64,000 bases of DNA from Promethearchaeota archaeon (GCA_048939245.1 JBHLPR010000004.1:1-64000); one strand, 5' to 3'; shown: positions 1 to 9,847, counted from the first letter of the stretch. The notes: generated by a model not told the origin, from the letters alone. Program-made: numbers and translations.

Positions 1-2082
1 AATGGCTTCTTGGAAATTTGACATATTTACTTGTGAAGCCTCCATATTATTGCGAAGGACAGCTAGGACGGCTTTACGACAGACATTCTGGATATCTGCA
101 CCAGAGAATCCTTCAGTCGCAGAGGCGAGTTCATCGATTTTAACATCTTCAGCAAGGGGCATATTTCGAGTATGGACTGCAAAAATTGCCTGTCGTGCCT
201 TTTGATTTGGAGGAGGAGTGAACACGAAAATGTCGAAGCGACCTGGTCGAAGTAGTGCATCATCAATCATGTCTGGGCGATTTGTGGCGGCCAGCACGAC
301 GACGCTTTCAAGTTCTTCCATTCCATCCATTTCGACTAATAATTGATTTACAATACGTTCACTTACCCGGCTATCAAAGCCGGATCCACGGCGTGGAGCA
401 ATATTATCGAGTTCATCGATGAATAGTATCGAAGGGGCTGTTTGTCGGGCTCGACGAAAAATCTCCGCAATGATTTTTTCCGATTCACCGACCCATTTGC
501 TCATAACTTCAGCACCGCGAATACTAATGAAATTCGCCTGGCTTTCAGTCGCCACCGCCTTCGCTAAGAGAGTCTTTCCAGTTCCTGGAGGACCGAAAAG
601 CATAACTCCCTTTGGAGGTGTGATATTGAATCGGGTAAACACATCAGGACGAGTTATCGGTAATTCAACCGCTTCCCGTAATGCTTGTTTAGCAGATTCC
701 ATGCCTCCAACATCATCCCAATGAACCATCGGAATTTCAACTGCAATCTCTCGAAGCGCAGAGGGCTCAACGAGTTGACGAGCAGTTTTGAAATCATTAT
801 CGGTAACGACAATCTGATTGATAATATCAGGGGGGATTTGCATGTGTTTTTCTTCGATTTTTGGAAGCACGCGTCGTAGGGCTCCTAAGGCTGCTTCTTT
901 TACTAAAAACGCCAGGTCCGAGCCCACAAATCCGTGAGTCCCTTGGGCTATTTCTAATAAGTTAACAGACTCGTCTAGGGGAACACCCCGTGTATGAACG
1001 CGAAGAATATCATGACGCCCGCGAGTATCTGGTACTGCGATGTGAATTTCACGGTCAAACCGACCCGGTCGTCGCAGCGCTGGATCAACCGCGTCTAACC
1101 TGTTTGTCGCTGCAAGTACAAAGACTTGATCCCGATCCTGAAGTCCATCCATGAGAGTTAATAGTTGAGCGACAATCCGGCTTTCCATTCCTCCGGATTC
1201 GCGTCGTGCTGCAATAGCATCGATTTCATCGATGAAGATGATTGCAGGTTTATTCTTTTCCGCTTCTTGAAAGGCATCACGGAGGAATTTTTCGGATTCG
1301 CCGTAATATTGACTGACAATTTCGGGACCATTAATAGCCCGAAAGAAGGCTTCACTTTCTGTTGCGACAGTTCTAGCCAGAAGAGTTTTTCCACACCCTG
1401 GAGGGCCATGGAGAAGCACACCCCGGGGAGGTTCAATTTTTAATCGTGCATAGAGCTCAGGGTGACGAATTGGGAGTTCCACAATCTCTCGAATTCGTGA
1501 AATCACATCATCTAACCCACCTACATCATCGTAGGTAGCTGTTGGAATGGATGGTGTTTCTTCATGAGCTTGTTTTCGAAGCTCAAGCGTGGTATTTGCA
1601 TTGACAAGAACATTGCCTACCGGCACTGTCTTTGCAACGTAAAACTTTGCTTCACCCAAGGCAAATGCAGCTCTTCCCACAGCAATAATGATATCTTTCT
1701 TGATTGGCTTATCTAACAAATTGGTTTTCAAAAGTGAGGTAGCTAATTCCTCGCGATATTCAATCTCTTCGCCCTTGAGTGGCGTCAAGACAACACTCCT
1801 TGCAGGCTGTGCTTCAATTCCATGAATTGTGACTATATCCCCGATTCGAACTCCAGCATTCAATCGAGTTAATCCGTCCATTTTGATGACAGTCTTATTC
1901 TGGATAGTGGAATCGCGGACTGCAAGCGCACACACGCTTTTTTTCCCTGTAATCTCAACGAGTGAACCATCTGCTAGCTGTAATTGGTCTAGTACAGCAG
2001 GGTCAAGGCGTACTGTAAATCGACCCACGTCCACTGCACTCGCCTCTGCAACACGAACCGATGTAACACTCAGATTAGCCAC
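1..2082 (-). CDS. cdc48: CDC48/p97/VCP-family AAA+ ATPase (3' end runs off the window)
   Basis: Not in the ORF track; read by hand from GTG at 2082 (MANLSVTSVRVAEASAVDVGRFTVRLDPA...). Two Walker A motifs (GPPGCGKT, GPPGTGKT), FIDEID/FIDELD Walker B and RPGRFD motifs. The position-1 end is in the same frame (..EGFSGADIQNVCRKA..NFQEAI). Confidence 0.95.
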   Translation of the reverse strand, partial: MANLSVTSVRVAEASAVDVGRFTVRLDPAVLDQLQLADGSLVEITGKKSVCALAVRDSTIQNKTVIKMDGLTRLNAGVRIGDIVTIHGIEAQPARSVVLTPLKGEEIEYREELATSLLKTNLLDKPIKKDIIIAVGRAAFALGEAKFYVAKTVPVGNVLVNANTTLELRKQAHEETPSIPTATYDDVGGLDDVISRIREIVELPIRHPELYARLKIEPPRGVLLHGPPGCGKTLLARTVATESEAFFRAINGPEIVSQYYGESEKFLRDAFQEAEKNKPAIIFIDEIDAIAARRESGGMESRIVAQLLTLMDGLQDRDQVFVLAATNRLDAVDPALRRPGRFDREIHIAVPDTRGRHDILRVHTRGVPLDESVNLLEIAQGTHGFVGSDLAFLVKEAALGALRRVLPKIEEKHMQIPPDIINQIVVTDNDFKTARQLVEPSALREIAVEIPMVHWDDVGGMESAKQALREAVELPITRPDVFTRFNITPPKGVMLFGPPGTGKTLLAKAVATESQANFISIRGAEVMSKWVGESEKIIAEIFRRARQTAPSILFIDELDNIAPRRGSGFDSRVSERIVNQLLVEMDGMEELESVVVLAATNRPDMIDDALLRPGRFDIFVFTPPPNQKARQAIFAVHTRNMPLAEDVKIDELASATEGFSGADIQNVCRKAVLAVLRNNMEASQVNMSNFQEAI

Positions 2083-2165
2083 ACTCCAACAGTGAATTGG
2101 ATAGGGGAGTATTTGGTATTACCCACGCGAGTAGCATATTTAACTCCGGCGCCTGATAGGTGAAT

Positions 2166-3053
2166 ATGGGTCGAAAGCCTATGACCACCACAAAGCAGCC
2201 TTCCATCCTTTTTTCCACAGCACATAATGAAGAACTTGCCCCTAATGAACCTGAACTCGCCCATCTAATTAAATTACTTGAAGCCAATGGAATGATACCA
2301 GTAACCCAAAAGACACTCCTATCAGAGGAAGATCTTTCAAAGGCTCATGTCGTTGTACTGGGAAATCCTTTTGATTCCTTGCTTCAGGAACAGGAGATCA
2401 AAACGATAATGTCTTTTGTTGAATCTGGTGGCGGCTTACTACTAATGAGTGGCGGCACAATATTTGGGAAGGGAGGAGATGTCGCACGGAATACAAATCT
2501 CAATGAGCTCGCGGTCCACTTTGGATTCAAATTTGCTGATAGAGCACTCGAAAAATCTGCAGATACACCAGAAGAACTTTTCACAGCTGTTCCTGCTGGC
2601 AAACACCCTGCCTTGGCAGGAATTGATCAAGTGTATTTAACATCTGGCGTCAGTCTGCTGGCTGAAGATACAAACATCCATTTGCTCCGTATAGCCAATG
2701 TCCCAGGAACGCCCACAATCGCAATTGCTACTGAAAAAAAGGAGGGCCGTGTAATCGGCTTTGGAGGAGGAGCCTTCTTTTTCAATCATTATATTGACGC
2801 TAATAACCACGAAGAGTTCATTGTACAGTTATTTCGATGGCTGGCAGGGGTACCAACAGAGTCCTCGGTTCAAAAGCTCACAATGTCCTTAAGTACTATA
2901 GAGGAATCAACAACCAGATCTATTGCTGATCTTCGACAACAGCTCAATAGGATTGAAGAAGAGCTTGCAGGTCTCAAAGAAGTAATTAATACTAGTGTTA
3001 AAGAAATGGAAAAACTTGTGCGACAGTTCAAAGAAGAAACGAAGGAGAGCTAA
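2166..3053 (+). CDS. GIFT (GldG/IFT52-like, DUF4350-like) domain protein with C-terminal coiled coil
   Basis: ILFSTAHNE, VVVLGNP, FVESGGGLLL, NLNELAVHFG, GRVIGFGG and NNHEEFIVQLFRWLA fit the class I glutamine-amidotransferase-like GIFT fold. The last ~45 aa form a heptad repeat. Start is uncertain (2160, 2166 or 2181). Confidence 0.7.
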   Translation: MGRKPMTTTKQPSILFSTAHNEELAPNEPELAHLIKLLEANGMIPVTQKTLLSEEDLSKAHVVVLGNPFDSLLQEQEIKTIMSFVESGGGLLLMSGGTIFGKGGDVARNTNLNELAVHFGFKFADRALEKSADTPEELFTAVPAGKHPALAGIDQVYLTSGVSLLAEDTNIHLLRIANVPGTPTIAIATEKKEGRVIGFGGGAFFFNHYIDANNHEEFIVQLFRWLAGVPTESSVQKLTMSLSTIEESTTRSIADLRQQLNRIEEELAGLKEVINTSVKEMEKLVRQFKEETKES

Positions 3054-3712
3054 CCTGTATAGGAAACTAGTTGTTCGATCATAATCCTTCGTTCCAATTC
3101 TACAGCGCCTTGATTTTGGAGGGTGAAGTAATCAAGCATCACTTGAAAAACTGGTTGGTTAAGCGTTTGAGCAAGGTCTTCGATGGATCGCTGGCCATCA
3201 ACAAGATCTAATAAGGGATGGAATTGTTCGGCGATTTGGTTTTTCGGCATCGTGTGTACGCGTACCGGAACATATCGTTCGGAGACTGCAAAAGGACGAA
3301 AGAGTAAATCGATTTGTGGTGCAATATCTCGAAAATGGCCTAAATCACCAAGCCAGTTCTCTAAGACCTCGCTGTGCTCTCGCTCCATAATATTGATGAG
3401 GGCACGCATACGTTCGCGAATAGCAGCCAAATCATGGGTCGAAAATACTGCGACATAAATGTTCTTACCATATTCTAAGAGTATCTTGACATCTTCTCGG
3501 TCAATAACGCGTAAGCGTCCATCTTCGCGTTCTAATGCATGTAATTGTTGCCCAGTTTCCGAGATGCGACCAACCAAGTCAGATAAAAACATACTCACTG
3601 CCGAGAGAAAGCCAGTCACAAGATCTGGCTCCATATTCTCAATTTGAAAGTCTTTTTGGAGCAAGGTTCGACCATCACGATAGACGACATAAAGACTATA
3701 CAAATGAGCCAT
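3050..3712 (-). CDS. Longin-like domain + C-terminal winged helix protein (NPRL2-like architecture)
   Basis: N-terminal LYVVYRDGRTLL...PDLVTGFLSAVSMF...KILLEYGKNIYVAVF is typical of Asgard longin domains. C-terminal YVPV...LLDLVDGQRSIEDLAQTL...LQNQGAVEL is a winged helix. Confidence 0.7.
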   Translation of the reverse strand: MAHLYSLYVVYRDGRTLLQKDFQIENMEPDLVTGFLSAVSMFLSDLVGRISETGQQLHALEREDGRLRVIDREDVKILLEYGKNIYVAVFSTHDLAAIRERMRALINIMEREHSEVLENWLGDLGHFRDIAPQIDLLFRPFAVSERYVPVRVHTMPKNQIAEQFHPLLDLVDGQRSIEDLAQTLNQPVFQVMLDYFTLQNQGAVELERRIMIEQLVSYTG

Positions 3713-3769
3713 TCACAGTCAACCTTCATTTCATTGATTGCCCGGAGACGGTAAAAGGTTTGCGAGAAC

Positions 3770-6358
3770 TCATCGAACTCGCTGTGCAATTCGATGGATT
3801 TCGCTAATAATTTCTACTGGAGAGGTCAGTTCCTCACCAAGATAAGTTCGACCTCCAGTAATATAAGCCATATAAAAGGCAAGAAAAGGTATGAGTTTGT
3901 CCTCAGTGATTCCAACTTCAATATAATTGGAAATATCAAGTTCCTGAGCTCGTTTCCGTACCCAATCTAAGATGACATCATGGTGTTGTTTCTGTTTTAT
4001 TGGAAAGAATTCGTGGTGAAGGTTGATTGTCACTAGAGGGATGTGGTCTTTACCAAGTAAGTGACATTGATGGAGAACATCTGCAATCGCTTCTGGTAAT
4101 CCGATATCTGGAGTATCAGAATTAACCAATTGGATATTTGGTAGAAAATCGCTGAACACGACCACGATGGGAAGGGTACCAGGATTTCGTCGACGTTCAC
4201 GTTTAATTGTCTCACGAGCCCGTTTTAATCCAGCTGCGAGAGGAGTATAACCAGATAATCGAAGAGTCATGAATTTGGCAACTAGTCTCGTCCAGTTGGT
4301 TGTGGGGGCTTGTACTTCTATAGCTCCCCAGTCTTTCAATGCAATGAGTCCAACACGATCCCGAGTTCCCTCTAGGCAAGTTTTGAAGGCAATTAGTGAG
4401 AGTTGAAGTTTATCAAAGCTTTTGAGCATTGAGATGCTCAAATCGACCACAAAGATGATTGTGAGGGGGGTCCAGCTCTGAAAACGTTTTTCACGAACAT
4501 CAGGAGATTGAATGTGAATTCGAGGTTTTTGTGTAATTTGGGGATCTGTATGCAGGGCTGCGGCTTTGATAGTTGCAGGAATATGAATGTTGTGTGGAGA
4601 ACCTTTTGGGAGGCCAGAACCGAGAAGTACTCCACCTTCTGCTTGTCTCGAATGGATTGATCCTGCACGTCGTCCGACTTGTCGAATTGACCATTTGGGG
4701 GCTCGTTGGCGTCCAAAATAGCGGGGTTCAAGAAAATCTTTGAAATCAAAGAGCGGTTTACCTTCATCCATTCTGATAAGCGAAGAAGACACTACAGGTG
4801 TTCCGGAACTAGTTGGGGGTTGTGATGGTTGGTCTGCTTTGGGTGGAGTAGTGCTAGTCGTGGGCGGTGCGGTGGATTCTCCCCGATGTTTGGCACGGCG
4901 ATATTTTCCCCTGAAATCAGGCGATTGATCTCCCTGTGCAAGTGCGGGCATAACGGAACCGGCTCGTTTTTGATAGCGATATAACCGTTCTAATAGAACA
5001 ATTAATCCTGCTGAGATGACTCCCCCAATAATGAAATTAATTGGAAAAGGGAGTGGAAGGACAAGTCCAATAGCAGCTGCAATCACCATGAAGAAACATA
5101 CAAATCCAGTGTACGAGCAGCGTCCGGCAGCGCCCCTCCTAGGGGGGTTTCCGAAAAAACGCTCGCCATCCTGACTACTATCCAATGGATGGTGTTGTTT
5201 GAATTTGTTGGTAAGTTTTTCATGTGTATCTTTTGTAAATGGATCTTTGTCCTTGGAACGAGGTGTTTGGGTCTTGACCTTTTTTCTCGCTTCTTTCATA
5301 ACATTTTGAATTTCGTCGCCTGAAGGTGGTTCAAGAATTCCTCGTTGGCGTGTGCGATGGCTAAGAGCTAGTGGAGCGATGATTTCGACATCTTCAGCAG
5401 AAACCGTGGTTCGTCCGTCGAAGGCAGCAAAAGCCATTGCGGTTTTAGCAATCACGATATCGGGACGGGCTCCATCTACTTGGAGCTGAGTAGTTAAGTG
5501 AGCAATGATTTGCATGATGTCATCAGAGATTTCCACAGTTTTCATTCGTTCACGGGCTGTAGAAATTTCTTCTCGTAACTTTTCTTCTTTTGGTGCCCAT
5601 TTCTCTTGGAGGGATTGAGGATTCTGTTCAAAATCGATGTTTAATTTGATAATTTGAACGCGTTCTTCAGTGGAGAACGGACGTTGGAGGGCTACATGGA
5701 GTGGAAACCGATCGAGAAGTTGTGGTCGGAGTTCACCTTCTTCAGGGTTCATAGAACCAATAAAAATGAAACGAGCAGGATGACTCACAGAGATTCCTTC
5801 TCTTTCAACAACGTTGATGCCTGTGGCTGCAGCGTCAAGAAGAGAGTCAACAATATGATCAGGGAGAAGATTAACTTCGTCAACGTAGAGGATATTCTGG
5901 TTGGCATCTGCAAGAATTCCTGGTCGTAGTGCAGCCTCCCCTTCACGAATAGCTCTTTCAACATCTAAGCTACCAACTACCCGATCCTCCGTGGCGCTGA
6001 GGGGGAGATTTACTACGCGCATTTTTTGCATTATGGTGTCTAATTTCTTGGTCTTTCTGAGTTTTTCACTACATGCTGAACAAAGCCCGATTGTATCATC
6101 AGGGGCACACCGAAATTGACAGCCTTTAACAACAGGAATCTCTGGCAGAAGCGCCGCGAGTGAACGAACGACTGTAGTTTTTCCAGTTCCCTTCGGACCT
6201 GTAATTAGAAGTCCACCAATGCTGGGGTTAATTGCATTGAGTATTAGAGCAAGTTTGAGCTCCTCATGGTTAACGAATGCAGTGAAAGGAAGGACATTTC
6301 GTCTCACGGTTTTCGCTTCAGGGACCAAATAATGAACCTCTACAATTTCTCTCTGCAT
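3770..6358 (-). CDS. ChlI/ChlD-type chelatase-like AAA+ ATPase fused to a two-TM hairpin and a VWA domain
   Basis: [38 protein letters not shown] and [15 protein letters not shown] mark the ChlI AAA+ domain. A hydrophobic stretch lies at about aa 418-457. VWA MIDAS motifs are [15 protein letters not shown] and VVFSD. Confidence 0.88.
5139..5159 (-). other. Candidate -1 programmed ribosomal frameshift site
   Basis: In-frame CGT TTT TTC GGA AAC CCC CCT AGG gives slippery heptamers T_TTT_TTC, A_AAC_CCC and C_CCC_CCT. The -1 frame reads TTT TTT CGG AAA CCC CCC TAG. A GC-rich foldable stretch follows. Confidence 0.6.
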
Positions 6359-6467
6359 TCAGCTTATAGAACTTTGGGAAGATGCACCACCAAGGCTGAA
6401 ATATACGTTGTCAAGAAATGCGTTATTCGGGCAAAAGCTTTAGTCTGGGTGAATACTCCTTGTAGGT

Positions 6468-6986
6468 ATGACCAGTAAGGTGCCAAAGGATCTTCGAAGT
6501 GGGCTTATCGCTGCCTATAAGGCGGCGCGTAATCATCTCCAATATATTGTCTCTGATTTAACGTCAGAACAGGCAGGAAAAGAACCGGTTCCTGAATCAC
6601 GCACGATTCTCTATTATTTGACACATATTGCAAATTCTGAACTCTATTGGCTCTCGGCATCGGGGCGAAAGGTCATAGTGTATGCGAAAACAGTTCCCCT
6701 TGATATTGCCTTAGATCTTTTAGAAGATGTTCGAAAACGAATACTTCGGGAACTCAGAGATTGCCCAGAGGATGAGCTGGTGTTCCAACCACCTACCAAG
6801 AAGCAAAAACCGAGTTTGGGTTGGTTGGTTTCACATATTACACTTCACACACTATATCACTCGGGTGAGATTATTTATGCACGCTATGCTGTTGGTGGCT
6901 CGGATTTGCCTAATGACGAACTTGAAGAATATTGGGGAAAAATGATGGAAACCATCACGCAGCTGATCTTCTTAGTAAAACAGTAA
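6468..6986 (+). CDS. DinB/YfiT family protein
   Basis: LTHIANSELYW and HITLHTLYHSGEI give the DinB His triad. Confidence 0.85.
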   Translation: MTSKVPKDLRSGLIAAYKAARNHLQYIVSDLTSEQAGKEPVPESRTILYYLTHIANSELYWLSASGRKVIVYAKTVPLDIALDLLEDVRKRILRELRDCPEDELVFQPPTKKQKPSLGWLVSHITLHTLYHSGEIIYARYAVGGSDLPNDELEEYWGKMMETITQLIFLVKQ

Positions 6987-7032
6987 ACATTTCATGACAG
7001 CGCCGAAAGAGCCTTGGTTTGTAATTCTCAAT

Positions 7033-7566
7033 TTATCCAAAAGTGAGTGTGGAAAACGCTTTTTCAAAGATTGAATATGAGGCGGGATCAAAGAGACAAA
7101 AGACGATGCGACGAAGTGATGTTTTTGATTCACGAACGAATTCCAGTGTGGTTGAGAGAATGATATCTGCGGCGCGTTCTTTAGGAAAACCAAAAATACC
7201 AGTACTAATCGCTGGAAAGGCGATACTTCGTAAGCGTTTGGAGTTAGCAAGTTTTAATGCGTTATGAACTGCATTGGCGAGTTTGGCATCTTCGCCGCCC
7301 TCGCCCCATTGAGGTCCCACAGCATGAATAACATATCGCGCTTTGAGATTTCCACCAGTCGTAAGAACAGCGGTTCCAACTGGTGTTCCACCAATATCAT
7401 CGCATTCTCGTTGTATAGCAGGGCCTCCACGTCGGCGTATTGCTCCTGCGACGCCACCTCCCATTTGAAGTGATTCATTTGCCGCATTAACGATGGCATC
7501 AGTAGCTAGATCTGTGATATCCCCTTGGACAAGTTCGATGGTGACATTATTGATACCCCGCCGCAT
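7033..7566 (-). CDS. Macro domain protein (O-acetyl-ADP-ribose deacetylase/ADP-ribosylhydrolase, MacroD type)
   Basis: GDIT, AIVNAANESLQMGGGVAGAI, VIHAVGP, SIAFPAISTGIFGFP. Confidence 0.95.
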   Translation of the reverse strand: MRRGINNVTIELVQGDITDLATDAIVNAANESLQMGGGVAGAIRRRGGPAIQRECDDIGGTPVGTAVLTTGGNLKARYVIHAVGPQWGEGGEDAKLANAVHNALKLANSKRLRSIAFPAISTGIFGFPKERAADIILSTTLEFVRESKTSLRRIVFCLFDPASYSIFEKAFSTLTFG

Positions 7567-7706
7567 AATTCAACACCCATTCGACCAACCACTATCAGCA
7601 AAAGCTTAGCATCTCGGCTTAAAGGTTTCCCCTCCAAGCTTATCTCAATCGAAATGTGGGCAACACCACTCAGATCCTAAGTATCTGAGACCATAGTGAA
7701 ATTCGG

Positions 7707-8387
7707 TCATGGTAGCAGGGGACCCATGAGTAAACCCGTGAGTCCTGCGATGATGATTAGTATCCAAGCGAGAATAATGAGGAAGAAACAGATGTAGAGT
7801 ATAACACGATGGCCTGAAACGTTGATTAATCCTAGATGTTCATCAAGATAGGTTGTATTGAAAGTAACACGCACATAATATACTGCAGCGATACCCAGGG
7901 GAATCCAAATTAAATCAAGTATCGTCCAAATTGACCCAGTTAGCACAGCTGTGATTCCTGCAAAGACTCCCCCAACGAGAGTAAACAGGTAAAAATCAGC
8001 TAGCACAAAACCAGTGGTTTCCCATAGGACACCAGTAATCATTGCCCCTGGTTCTCCATATCGTTTATTTCGAAATCTTCGACCAAGGTAGCCTACGATA
8101 TAGGCTTCAATCCCCCGAACAGCTAATACCCCAGGAATATAGACTGCAGGTAATCCTGCATAGGTGATTAAAAGCCCTTTGCCCAGAAGCTGGCCTATGA
8201 CTGTGATGATGACACCAATTTCGGGACCATAGAGGATTGCCGCAGCAAAAATCAAAACCGAAGATGCATCGAGGCTTCCTAAGGGTGTGGGAACTACAAT
8301 GCTTGCATATGATAAGACGGCCATAAGTGAACTAAGAATTCCTATTGTGGCGAAGTACATTGACCGCGGTGAAGGTAATTTAGCCAT
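7707..8387 (-). CDS. ECF transporter S component (stand-alone)
   Basis: Real start is MAKLPSPRSMYF at 8387; the longer track ORF is antisense read-through of thiN. About 6-7 TM helices, with IFAAAILYGPEIG and AVRGIEAYIVG motifs. Confidence 0.75.
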   Translation of the reverse strand: MAKLPSPRSMYFATIGILSSLMAVLSYASIVVPTPLGSLDASSVLIFAAAILYGPEIGVIITVIGQLLGKGLLITYAGLPAVYIPGVLAVRGIEAYIVGYLGRRFRNKRYGEPGAMITGVLWETTGFVLADFYLFTLVGGVFAGITAVLTGSIWTILDLIWIPLGIAAVYYVRVTFNTTYLDEHLGLINVSGHRVILYICFFLIILAWILIIIAGLTGLLMGPLLP

Positions 8388-8526
8388 GATAGGTCCCTCG
8401 AAGCGAAGGTAGACAACCTTCCGATGGCGATTGTTATACGGGATGTATATAAGCCTTGTGTAAAAAACCGTACACTCAAAAGGAAGAATTATCAAGAACT
8501 TGGAAGGTTCAACCCACTGAGGGCTT

Positions 8527-9075
8527 ATGATGGCCAACGACCCGTTGAAATTAATCAAACAATTAAACACCAATATCATTGCCCTTACTCGAACGCCCAA
8601 TTTTGCACGATTAGTTCCAGAGGTAGGAAGTAATTTCGTCGCCTGTTTGCCAGGAGCCATCGAACTTTCCCAGGTGGCGGGTTTGACAGGACGCATTATC
8701 TTAATTCGTGGTGAACCGGAACCAGTAGGTGAAGTTGATTTTGGATGGGCCCCATTTATGGGTCGTGTTATTCTCAAAGCCCATGCACTAAATCCTACGA
8801 TTCGGGCAGCCGTATCATTACGGCATTCCAATTCAATCGTTGAAGCTGCGCGTAAGGCGAAATTACAGGTAGTTGGATTTCGGCTAGGAGAACGCAAACC
8901 GGTTCCAGACTGTATGACCTTAGAAGGATTAACGAAATTTGGTTTCGTCCCGGAAGTCCTTTTTGACTGGGGTGCACATGGAGTTGAACCGCTTGTAGTA
9001 GTATTTGGATCAATGCCGAAAGTCGTTACCCAACGCGCTCGAGCAATTTTGAAAGAATTAGTAGTTGATGAGTGA
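8527..9075 (+). CDS. thiN: ThiN-family (thiamine-phosphate synthase-like) domain protein
   Basis: LVPEVGSNF, VAGLTGRI, VDFG, IRAAVSLR and PEVLFDWGAHGVEPLVVVFG. Some catalytic-region residues look diverged (FGWAPFMG). Confidence 0.8.
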   Translation: MMANDPLKLIKQLNTNIIALTRTPNFARLVPEVGSNFVACLPGAIELSQVAGLTGRIILIRGEPEPVGEVDFGWAPFMGRVILKAHALNPTIRAAVSLRHSNSIVEAARKAKLQVVGFRLGERKPVPDCMTLEGLTKFGFVPEVLFDWGAHGVEPLVVVFGSMPKVVTQRARAILKELVVDE

Positions 9076-9847
9076 CTGGAGCTTGACAAACGCTTTAGAA
9101 AAAGTTGGGAAATATAGGCAAGCCGTGAGCCGAGCATTTGGATCGATTGCACAGATGTATGATTCATGGTATCAAACACCTATGGGGCGTTATGTCTGGT
9201 CTGTAGAAACGAATGCGGTTAAAGCCATCCTGCCTCAGGAGATTCATGAAGTTTCCATTGAAATTGGGGTTGGAACAGGAATGGCACTAACCTTCCTTCA
9301 ACAGGTGTCTAAACAGCTTGTGGGAATAGATATTGCCTGGCAAATGCTAACCATTGCACGCCAAAAGACTTTGACCCACGAAAATGTGCATCTTATTCTT
9401 TCAGATGGAGAGCATTTGCCACTACGAGGGGAATGTACGAATCTAATCTTGGGCATGACAATATTAGAGTTCATAGCTGACCAGGATCAATTCCTACACG
9501 AAATCTTTCGATGCCTTTGCCCTGCAGGTCATCTCATATTAGGAGTGCTGGCATCAACCAATCTTTGGGCTATTGAACGACGAATCCGCAACCTAGCTCA
9601 GCAAGATGTCTTTGAGCTTGCACGATTTCCAAGCCCCTGGCAAGTAATCCGCATCCTACGTGAAAATGGATTTTCCCAGGTCACTTACCGGGGGTCAGTG
9701 TACGCTCCACCCTTTGCATCCGCACGATGTCTACCGGCTTTTCATTACCTTGATATGAAACTGGGTACTCGATGGCTAAGTCGAGCATTTGGTGCGTTTC
9801 TGGTCTTTAATTCGCGACGAAGCGATTCTAAGCAATATGTGAAGTGA
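9068..9847 (+). CDS. Class I SAM-dependent methyltransferase (Methyltransf_11)
   Basis: YDSWYQTPMG, EIGVGTG, GIDIAWQML, DGEHLPL. Overlaps the thiN stop, indicating an operon. Confidence 0.88.
   Translation: MSDWSLTNALEKVGKYRQAVSRAFGSIAQMYDSWYQTPMGRYVWSVETNAVKAILPQEIHEVSIEIGVGTGMALTFLQQVSKQLVGIDIAWQMLTIARQKTLTHENVHLILSDGEHLPLRGECTNLILGMTILEFIADQDQFLHEIFRCLCPAGHLILGVLASTNLWAIERRIRNLAQQDVFELARFPSPWQVIRILRENGFSQVTYRGSVYAPPFASARCLPAFHYLDMKLGTRWLSRAFGAFLVFNSRRSDSKQYVK

Follow-up and report, generated by a model that had tools for sequence, protein, structure and literature searches.

A proposed −1 recoding site ahead of the membrane anchor in an Asgard ChlI/ChlD-like AAA+ protein

P0001 is a membrane-tethered, ChlI/ChlD-like AAA+-VWA protein of 862 amino acids (aa), encoded in a 64,000-nucleotide (nt) stretch of DNA (the window; GCA_048939245.1, JBHLPR010000004.1:1-64000) from Promethearchaeota archaeon; records of relatives name the organism as Promethearchaeota (Asgard). 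Within this gene, comparison of orthologs establishes positions 5161-5139 on the minus strand as a functional element at the nucleotide level. The most economical explanation of the element would be a −1 ribosomal frameshift, a judgement that we hold at even balance. That this is a real −1 recoding site, whose use would give a soluble AAA+ protein of 406 aa in addition to the anchored protein of 862 aa, seems to us about as likely as not. The gene and the parts of the proposed site are as follows.

3770..6358, minus strand: ChlI/ChlD-like gene P0001, 862 aa (list of open reading frames, and translation; AAA+ module, membrane hairpin, disordered linker, and VWA domain)
5139..5161, minus strand: proposed conserved recoding cassette, codons 400-407, CGT TTT TTY GGA nnn CCn CCT A(G/A) (synonymous-constraint scans)
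5153..5159, minus strand: slippery heptamer T_TTT_TTC, where the −1 shift is proposed to occur (clade conservation)
5150..5152, minus strand: GGA codon directly after the heptamer (19/19 in the clade)
5139..5141, minus strand: −1 stop TAG, formed by the T of CCT(406) and the AG of the next codon (TAG or TAA in 17/19)
5141..5150, minus strand: second and third heptamers, A_AAC_CCC and C_CCC_CCT, strain-specific (1/21 and 2/21 orthologs)

In the zero frame, the minus strand reads GAG CGT TTT TTC GGA AAC CCC CCT AGG AGG GGC, encoding residues E399 to G409. Three in-frame heptamers of the form X_XXY_YYZ are present: T_TTT_TTC (5159-5153), A_AAC_CCC (5150-5144), and C_CCC_CCT (5147-5141). The −1 frame reads TTT TTT CGG AAA CCC CCC TAG and stops at 5141-5139. 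The sequence, the three heptamers, and the stop are as described in an earlier note on this DNA. A slip on the first heptamer would yield a 406-aa product with the carboxyl terminus FFRKPP; in most relatives the corresponding end would be FFWNPA. Such heptamers with nearby −1 stops are common in the genome, so the single sequence is by itself no evidence: in a crude set of 1513 genes from the same genome, in-frame heptamers number about 2150; T_TTT_TTN accounts for 124, and for 47 of these a −1 stop lies no more than 8 codons away. The genome otherwise avoids T_TTT_TTY, which occupies 60 of 1394 Phe-Phe pairs in the 1513-gene set versus about 119 expected. Moreover, where a codon ending in T precedes Phe-Phe, the first Phe codon is TTC in 272 of 332 cases (genome G000).

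The evidence comes instead from relatives. Twenty-eight distinct orthologous coding sequences were gathered and codon-aligned, and the tree was rooted with outgroups. It contains a monophyletic, genus-level clade of 19 members, 70-86% identical in pairwise protein comparison, that carries CGT TTT TTY GGA nnn CCn CCT A(G/A)n. Within this clade, TTT(401) and GGA(403) are each present in 19/19, the T at the X position in 17/19, a perfect T_TTT_TTY in 16/19, and a T run of at least six in 18/19. The −1 stop, TAG or TAA through CCT-A(G/A), is kept in 17/19. The next −1 stop lies 40-82 codons further on, so the conserved stop is what would keep a shifted product short. In-frame heptamers turn up in one ortholog or another at 40 positions, of which residue 401 is by far the best conserved (16/21; the next best has 8/21). 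P0001 is encoded in a single open frame of 862 aa, and all 21 orthologs likewise have one open frame. On the rooted tree, the signal seems to have arisen once, within an in-frame lineage.

Synonymous constraint peaks exactly at the first heptamer. In tree parsimony over the clade, the 7-codon window beginning at residue 400 is the lowest of 600, with a z-sum of −4.64 (next independent window, −2.26); it keeps the lowest place, among 632 windows, once the basal pair is added. Two codons do not change at all: F401 (TTT; Phe-column mean, 3.6 synonymous changes), and G403 (GGA; Gly-column mean, 5.9), which is the sole Gly column without change. R400 is CGT in 16/17 Arg codons, with one change against a class mean of 6.8, and P406 is CCT in 17/19, with two changes against a Pro-column mean of 6.5. 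Out of 562 conserved degenerate columns, four that are among the least-changing for their codon classes fall within 7 codons; 13 of the 562 columns are unchanged, and two of those 13 are inside the cassette. Two other cassette columns are about average for their classes: P405 has 6 changes; and the third base of F402, the Z position, has 4 (12 TTT, 6 TTC). Synonymous sites nearby have reached saturation, at 4-7 changes apiece. The constrained positions coincide with those needed for a −1 tandem slip, namely X, XXY, and the T of the new-frame stop, and the freedom of Z is as expected for tRNA-Phe.

A second measure, pairwise synonymous identity in 9-codon windows, places residues 398-408 fourth of 810. 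Only the extreme 5' end of the gene ranks above: the top three of the 810 windows fall there (6319-6352, minus strand, codons 3-13), with the strongest synonymous conservation in the gene. This may be the usual footprint of translation-initiation constraints, or the start may lie elsewhere.

These observations suggest how the site might work. The majority of ribosomes would read through U_UUU_UUY to make the 862-aa anchored protein. A fraction would slip back one base, tRNA-Phe pairing anew in the P site and the A site alike, and would then read four further codons before stopping. The result would be a protein of about 406 aa, with a complete AAA+ module and with neither the anchor nor the VWA domain. 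In E. coli, U_UU.U_UU.C/U shifts at more than 0.1% without stimulators, and is under-represented in genes (PMC4066793). We infer the slippage itself, its efficiency, the solubility of the short product, its assembly into a mixed ring with the long form, and any effect on ring stoichiometry and localisation. The short and long products would differ by the membrane anchor, so that recoding could set both the location of the AAA+ motor and the composition of its ring.

An AlphaFold2 model of P0001, built on 26 relatives (mean predicted local distance difference test score, pLDDT, 60), ends the AAA+ module at about residue 362, leaves residues 386-417 disordered, and is confident for the VWA domain at 632-860. 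Together with hydropathy, the model places the slippery site in the disordered stretch, 12-14 residues ahead of the first membrane helix.

The boundary ahead of the hairpin is a proven recoding point in this protein family. In f31, a family from the same phylum with about 40% identity and the same hairpin, a run of A9-A11 occupies the same AAA+/hairpin boundary. The hairpin and VWA region are in the −1 frame in 23 of 30 f31 loci (L026-L036, L048-L067), in frame in five, and in the +1 frame in two; the tract length tracks the frame, with A9 typical of −1 and A10 of in-frame loci. This poly-A site is of the published fs-chlD ('magnesium chelatase') frameshift type. The short zero-frame product of f31 matches the extent of the short product predicted for the window. 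The chlD frameshifting literature, as searched, makes no mention of a membrane hairpin after the fs-chlD site.

Several results weigh against recoding in the window. The first concerns the signal. The window's 76-nt region folds at −16.4 kcal/mol, worse than shuffled sequences (mean −20.9; z = +1.5). RNAalifold on −12..+90 gave three weak pairs with no covariation and no conserved stimulatory structure, and on five wider spans around the site it gave 3-6 weak pairs at most, again without covariation. The yield of U_UUU_UUY without a stimulator may be low. Nor is the invariant GGA predicted by a simple slip model. The second concerns distribution. The site is limited to one clade. No slippery sequence is present at this place in the genus's basal branch (L015, L040), in its sister genus (L022-L025), or in other lineages at 66% identity or less, among them the more distant L042-L044. 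No separate chlI was seen in the searched genomes of the genus that are without the site, so the short product is not generally required. Third, the clade itself includes partial losses: L021 has lost the heptamer (TTT TCT); L003 and L013 are missing the X-position T; and L012 and L037 are missing the −1 stop, so that their shifted tails would be 40 residues.

Archaeal RNA polymerases terminate at oligo-T. The T run might therefore serve some other role at the nucleotide level, as a polymerase pause, a partial terminator, or a binding site, with the −1 stop acting as an 'ambush' stop to limit accidental slips on an unavoidable run. We consider this unlikely. It would accommodate the constraint on GGA, which a slip does not need, and the failure to find a stimulatory structure; the −1 stops that flank the run closely, of which those upstream are 1-6 codons away in most orthologs, also suit it, as does the avoidance of UUUUUUU in all E. 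coli frames, which suggests frame-independent effects (PMC4066793). However, a transcript terminated here would carry no stop codon and give no useful protein, and the length of the run is unselected, with T6 and T7 interchanging at Z (the four changes noted above). The motif is not recurrent either: TTTTTTYGGAA has 10 loose matches across the genome, in scattered and unrelated contexts, and a recurrent genomic motif was rejected on that ground. Finally, such a role leaves unexplained why the site falls at the very boundary where relatives recode. The upstream −1 stops dispose of a further candidate, an overlapping −1 gene that ends at the conserved TAG: in most orthologs its frame is closed within those 1-6 codons.

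The site might have no function at all: Phe-Phe would by chance be written TTT TTY and inherited once, and the 862-aa protein would be the only product. The 47 T-type cases with a nearby −1 stop make this conceivable, as do the single origin of the feature and its several partial losses in the clade. However, the concentration of four least-changing codons within 7 codons, amid saturated neighbours, speaks against chance, and the site had been named before the constraint test was run. We regard an accident as decidedly unlikely.

Transcriptional slippage would lead to the same short product by another path, in which an extra U enters the mRNA as the polymerase copies the T6-T7 run, after which ordinary translation arrives at the TAG. 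It accounts equally well for the T run and the −1 stop, and the A9-A11 tracts of f31, whose length sets the frame (A9 mostly −1, A10 in frame), are long enough for it. However, productive cases have been described at about nine A or T (PMC5009743), beside which T6-T7 is short; T7 is not favoured over T6 by selection; and in DNA contigs from four sequencing runs neither the T6 nor the C6 tract varies in length. This explanation is very unlikely for the window.

The earlier note had combined all three heptamers with a GC-rich 3' hairpin into one strong, stacked signal, which is scarcely credible and which we reject as contradicted by the comparative data: although this one sequence does contain the three heptamers and a possible CCCCU/AGGGG stem that can be drawn on paper, the stem lacks conservation, its fold is no more stable than that of shuffles, and the second and third heptamers occur in 1/21 and 2/21 orthologs (the latter count including a C_CCC_CCT of independent origin in L040). 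At that place, contigs that share about 97% identity with the window read ACC CCG or ACC CCA, so the stacking is an accident of this strain. The AGGAGG after the −1 stop is also specific to the window's strain. What survives of that proposal is the first heptamer, its −1 stop, and the synonymous constraint on both, within the clade and not beyond it.

We return to −1 recoding and to the protein on which it would act. The remaining features of the locus are listed here.

5273..6289, minus strand: ChlI-like AAA+ module, residues 24-362 (TIGR02030 match over residues 24-356; AlphaFold2 secondary structure; invariant G54-K60, D160, and E161)
4973..5119, minus strand: two-helix hydrophobic hairpin, the membrane anchor, residues 414-462 (hydropathy 414-460; AlphaFold2 helices 414-433 and 440-462; kept in all family members)
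4469..4972, minus strand: disordered basic linker rich in Ser, Thr, and Pro, residues 463-630 (AlphaFold2 pLDDT below 50 over 460-532 and 546-629)
3779..4465, minus strand: VWA domain, residues 632-860 (Pfam VWA_2 at 634-738; AlphaFold2 pLDDT 75-89; invariant D639, S641, and S643)
3050..3712, minus strand: P0121, a 220-aa gene of no family (57 nt downstream of P0001 on the same strand; kept at that position in orthologous loci)

Pfam matches in P0001 are AAA_lid_2, AAA_5, Mg_chelatase, and VWA_2. The nearest NCBIfam model is TIGR02442, a fused ChlI/ChlD-type 'putative cobaltochelatase', at 543 bits against a cut-off of 779.5. The cut-off of TIGR02031 (ChlD/BchD) is not reached either (285 bits; cut-off 499.6), nor is that of TIGR02030 (the BchI model). 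The AAA+ module has intact Walker A (GPKGTGKT, 6176-6199, minus strand) and Walker B motifs, and the VWA domain contains the metal-ion-dependent adhesion site (MIDAS) motif DLSIS (4430-4444, minus strand); all three motifs are invariant across the aligned relatives.

Three further observations concern this architecture. Four cysteines in the AAA+ module, C80, C84, C93, and C96 (6071-6121, minus strand, residues 80-96), are invariant in all 26 aligned relatives, and the insert that carries them is likely to bind zinc. Just past the AAA+ lid, an A_AAA_AAG encodes part of Arg-Lys-Lys (5279-5285, minus strand) and is present in 14/21 orthologs, in either of two registers; its synonymous variation is ordinary, and we rejected it as a second shift site, the run being a likely by-product of Lys-Lys. 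In the same-genus ortholog L013 (G105:C35), an in-frame TGA lies at about codon 526, in the disordered linker; an error in sequencing, a pseudogene, or a natural division of the gene in two might each account for it.

The window's genome is 88% complete. The earlier note had raised the matter of a separate chlI, and indeed no second ChlI-like gene was found in this 88%-complete genome (best other match, E = 2e-8 at 31% identity). CobN/ChlH (PF02514) also was not found there, in a search that did give matches in control genomes. Gene order around P0001 is conserved (window 1-9200, loci L037-L045): an ECF-type transporter, Macro, DinB (divergent), the AAA+/VWA gene, the 220-aa gene, GIFT/DUF4350 (convergent), and CDC48. 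P0121 has no match in Pfam or NCBIfam; judged by eye, its amino terminus looks longin- or roadblock-like.

Together, these results provoke a broader hypothesis: a two-product gene of the chlD type may have been re-invented in a fused, in-frame lineage, with a U6-7 run and the opposite topology, such that recoding would split an AAA+ motor between membrane-tethered and soluble pools, in an Asgard operon with a longin-like protein and without a chelatase large subunit. We offer this tentatively, as somewhat less than an even chance. Cases of cellular −1 frameshifting in archaea are very few: the chelatase genes that Methanocaldococcus and Methanococcus carry, and perhaps a case in Sulfolobus (PMC5009743). 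If the window's site is real, it would bring Asgard archaea into this short list, through a conserved U_UUU_UUY whose footprint of selection is position-specific. It would also mean that the two-product design can be regained after gene fusion, which Kuznetsov et al. (2022) considered unlikely (PMC9227772), and it would reverse the frameshifting scheme already published for this gene family. The role of ChlI/ChlD pairs that act without a large subunit was posed as a question by Kuznetsov et al. (PMC9227772), and the Asgard genes described here, beside which a longin-like gene is conserved, offer candidates in which to study it.

P0001 has the plan of the canonical ChlD/BchD and CobT medium subunits of chelatases: an AAA+ module; a flexible linker; and a carboxyl-terminal VWA domain with a MIDAS motif. 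Unlike ChlD/BchD, it falls under the TIGR02031, TIGR02030, and TIGR02442 cut-offs, retains intact, ChlI-like ATPase motifs, and has a membrane hairpin and a basic Ser/Thr/Pro linker in place of a soluble linker. Unlike the canonical chelatases, it occurs in a genome (as noted, 88% complete) in which no large subunit, whether ChlH or CobN, was found.

The HIV-1 gag-pol signal, U UUU UUA GGG, likewise joins a U6N heptamer to a glycine codon, one that is strictly conserved and influences shifting (Mathew et al. 2015, PMC4373837). The likeness is no more than an analogy: HIV-1 is a eukaryotic virus, its signal includes a stem-loop stimulator, and its shift extends the protein, whereas the window's would truncate it.

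The E. coli dnaX gene (tau/gamma) is a closer match in design. There too the zero-frame product is the long one, and a −1 heptamer is followed by a stop, in the window four codons on (5141-5139). The predicted short product of the window would, like that of dnaX, be a truncated AAA+ protein sharing its amino terminus with the long form, and the dnaX short form joins the same complex. Reversed long and short topologies exist among dnaX genes of different species (PMC5009743). However, the dnaX heptamer is A_AAA_AAG, its signal also includes a Shine-Dalgarno-like element upstream and a stem-loop downstream, and it shifts at about 50%. At the window's site no stimulator was found, the host is an archaeon, and the proteins are unrelated beyond the AAA+ fold.

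The closest comparison is with fs-chlD itself. Chelatase frameshifting has been reported from bacteria and methanogens (Antonov et al. 2013, PMC3711429; reviewed in Atkins et al. 2016, PMC5009743; Kuznetsov et al. 2022, PMC9227772), and the same papers bear out the earlier note's statement that some chlD genes make two subunits by programmed frameshifting; some fs-chlD members sit in genomes without the large subunit or a tetrapyrrole pathway. Shifting at the fs-chlD poly-A site was measured in E. coli at 10-63% (PMC3711429). As in fs-chlD, one locus in the window encodes a ChlI-like AAA+ half and a VWA half (Pfam, NCBIfam, AlphaFold2); the site lies at the domain boundary; the shift would be −1; the predicted products are short and ChlI-like, and long and ChlD-like; and the slippery sequence between AAA+ and VWA is under purifying selection (T_TTT_TTY in 16/19, in the most constrained of 600 windows). 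The f31 genes are plain fs-chlD members, with halves in different frames and an A9-A11 run. In the window, by contrast, the two halves share one frame, so that the shifted product would be the short one and not the long; slipping would take place on U6-U7 and not on poly-A; and the site is followed by a membrane hairpin. Kuznetsov et al. (2022) argued that such signals are not expected to re-evolve in chlD genes without a frameshift (PMC9227772), whereas the window's seems to have emerged inside a lineage that is in frame. The site therefore looks like kin to the two-product chlD genes, but with a reversed topology, a different run, an origin that seems to be independent, and a membrane anchor just behind it.

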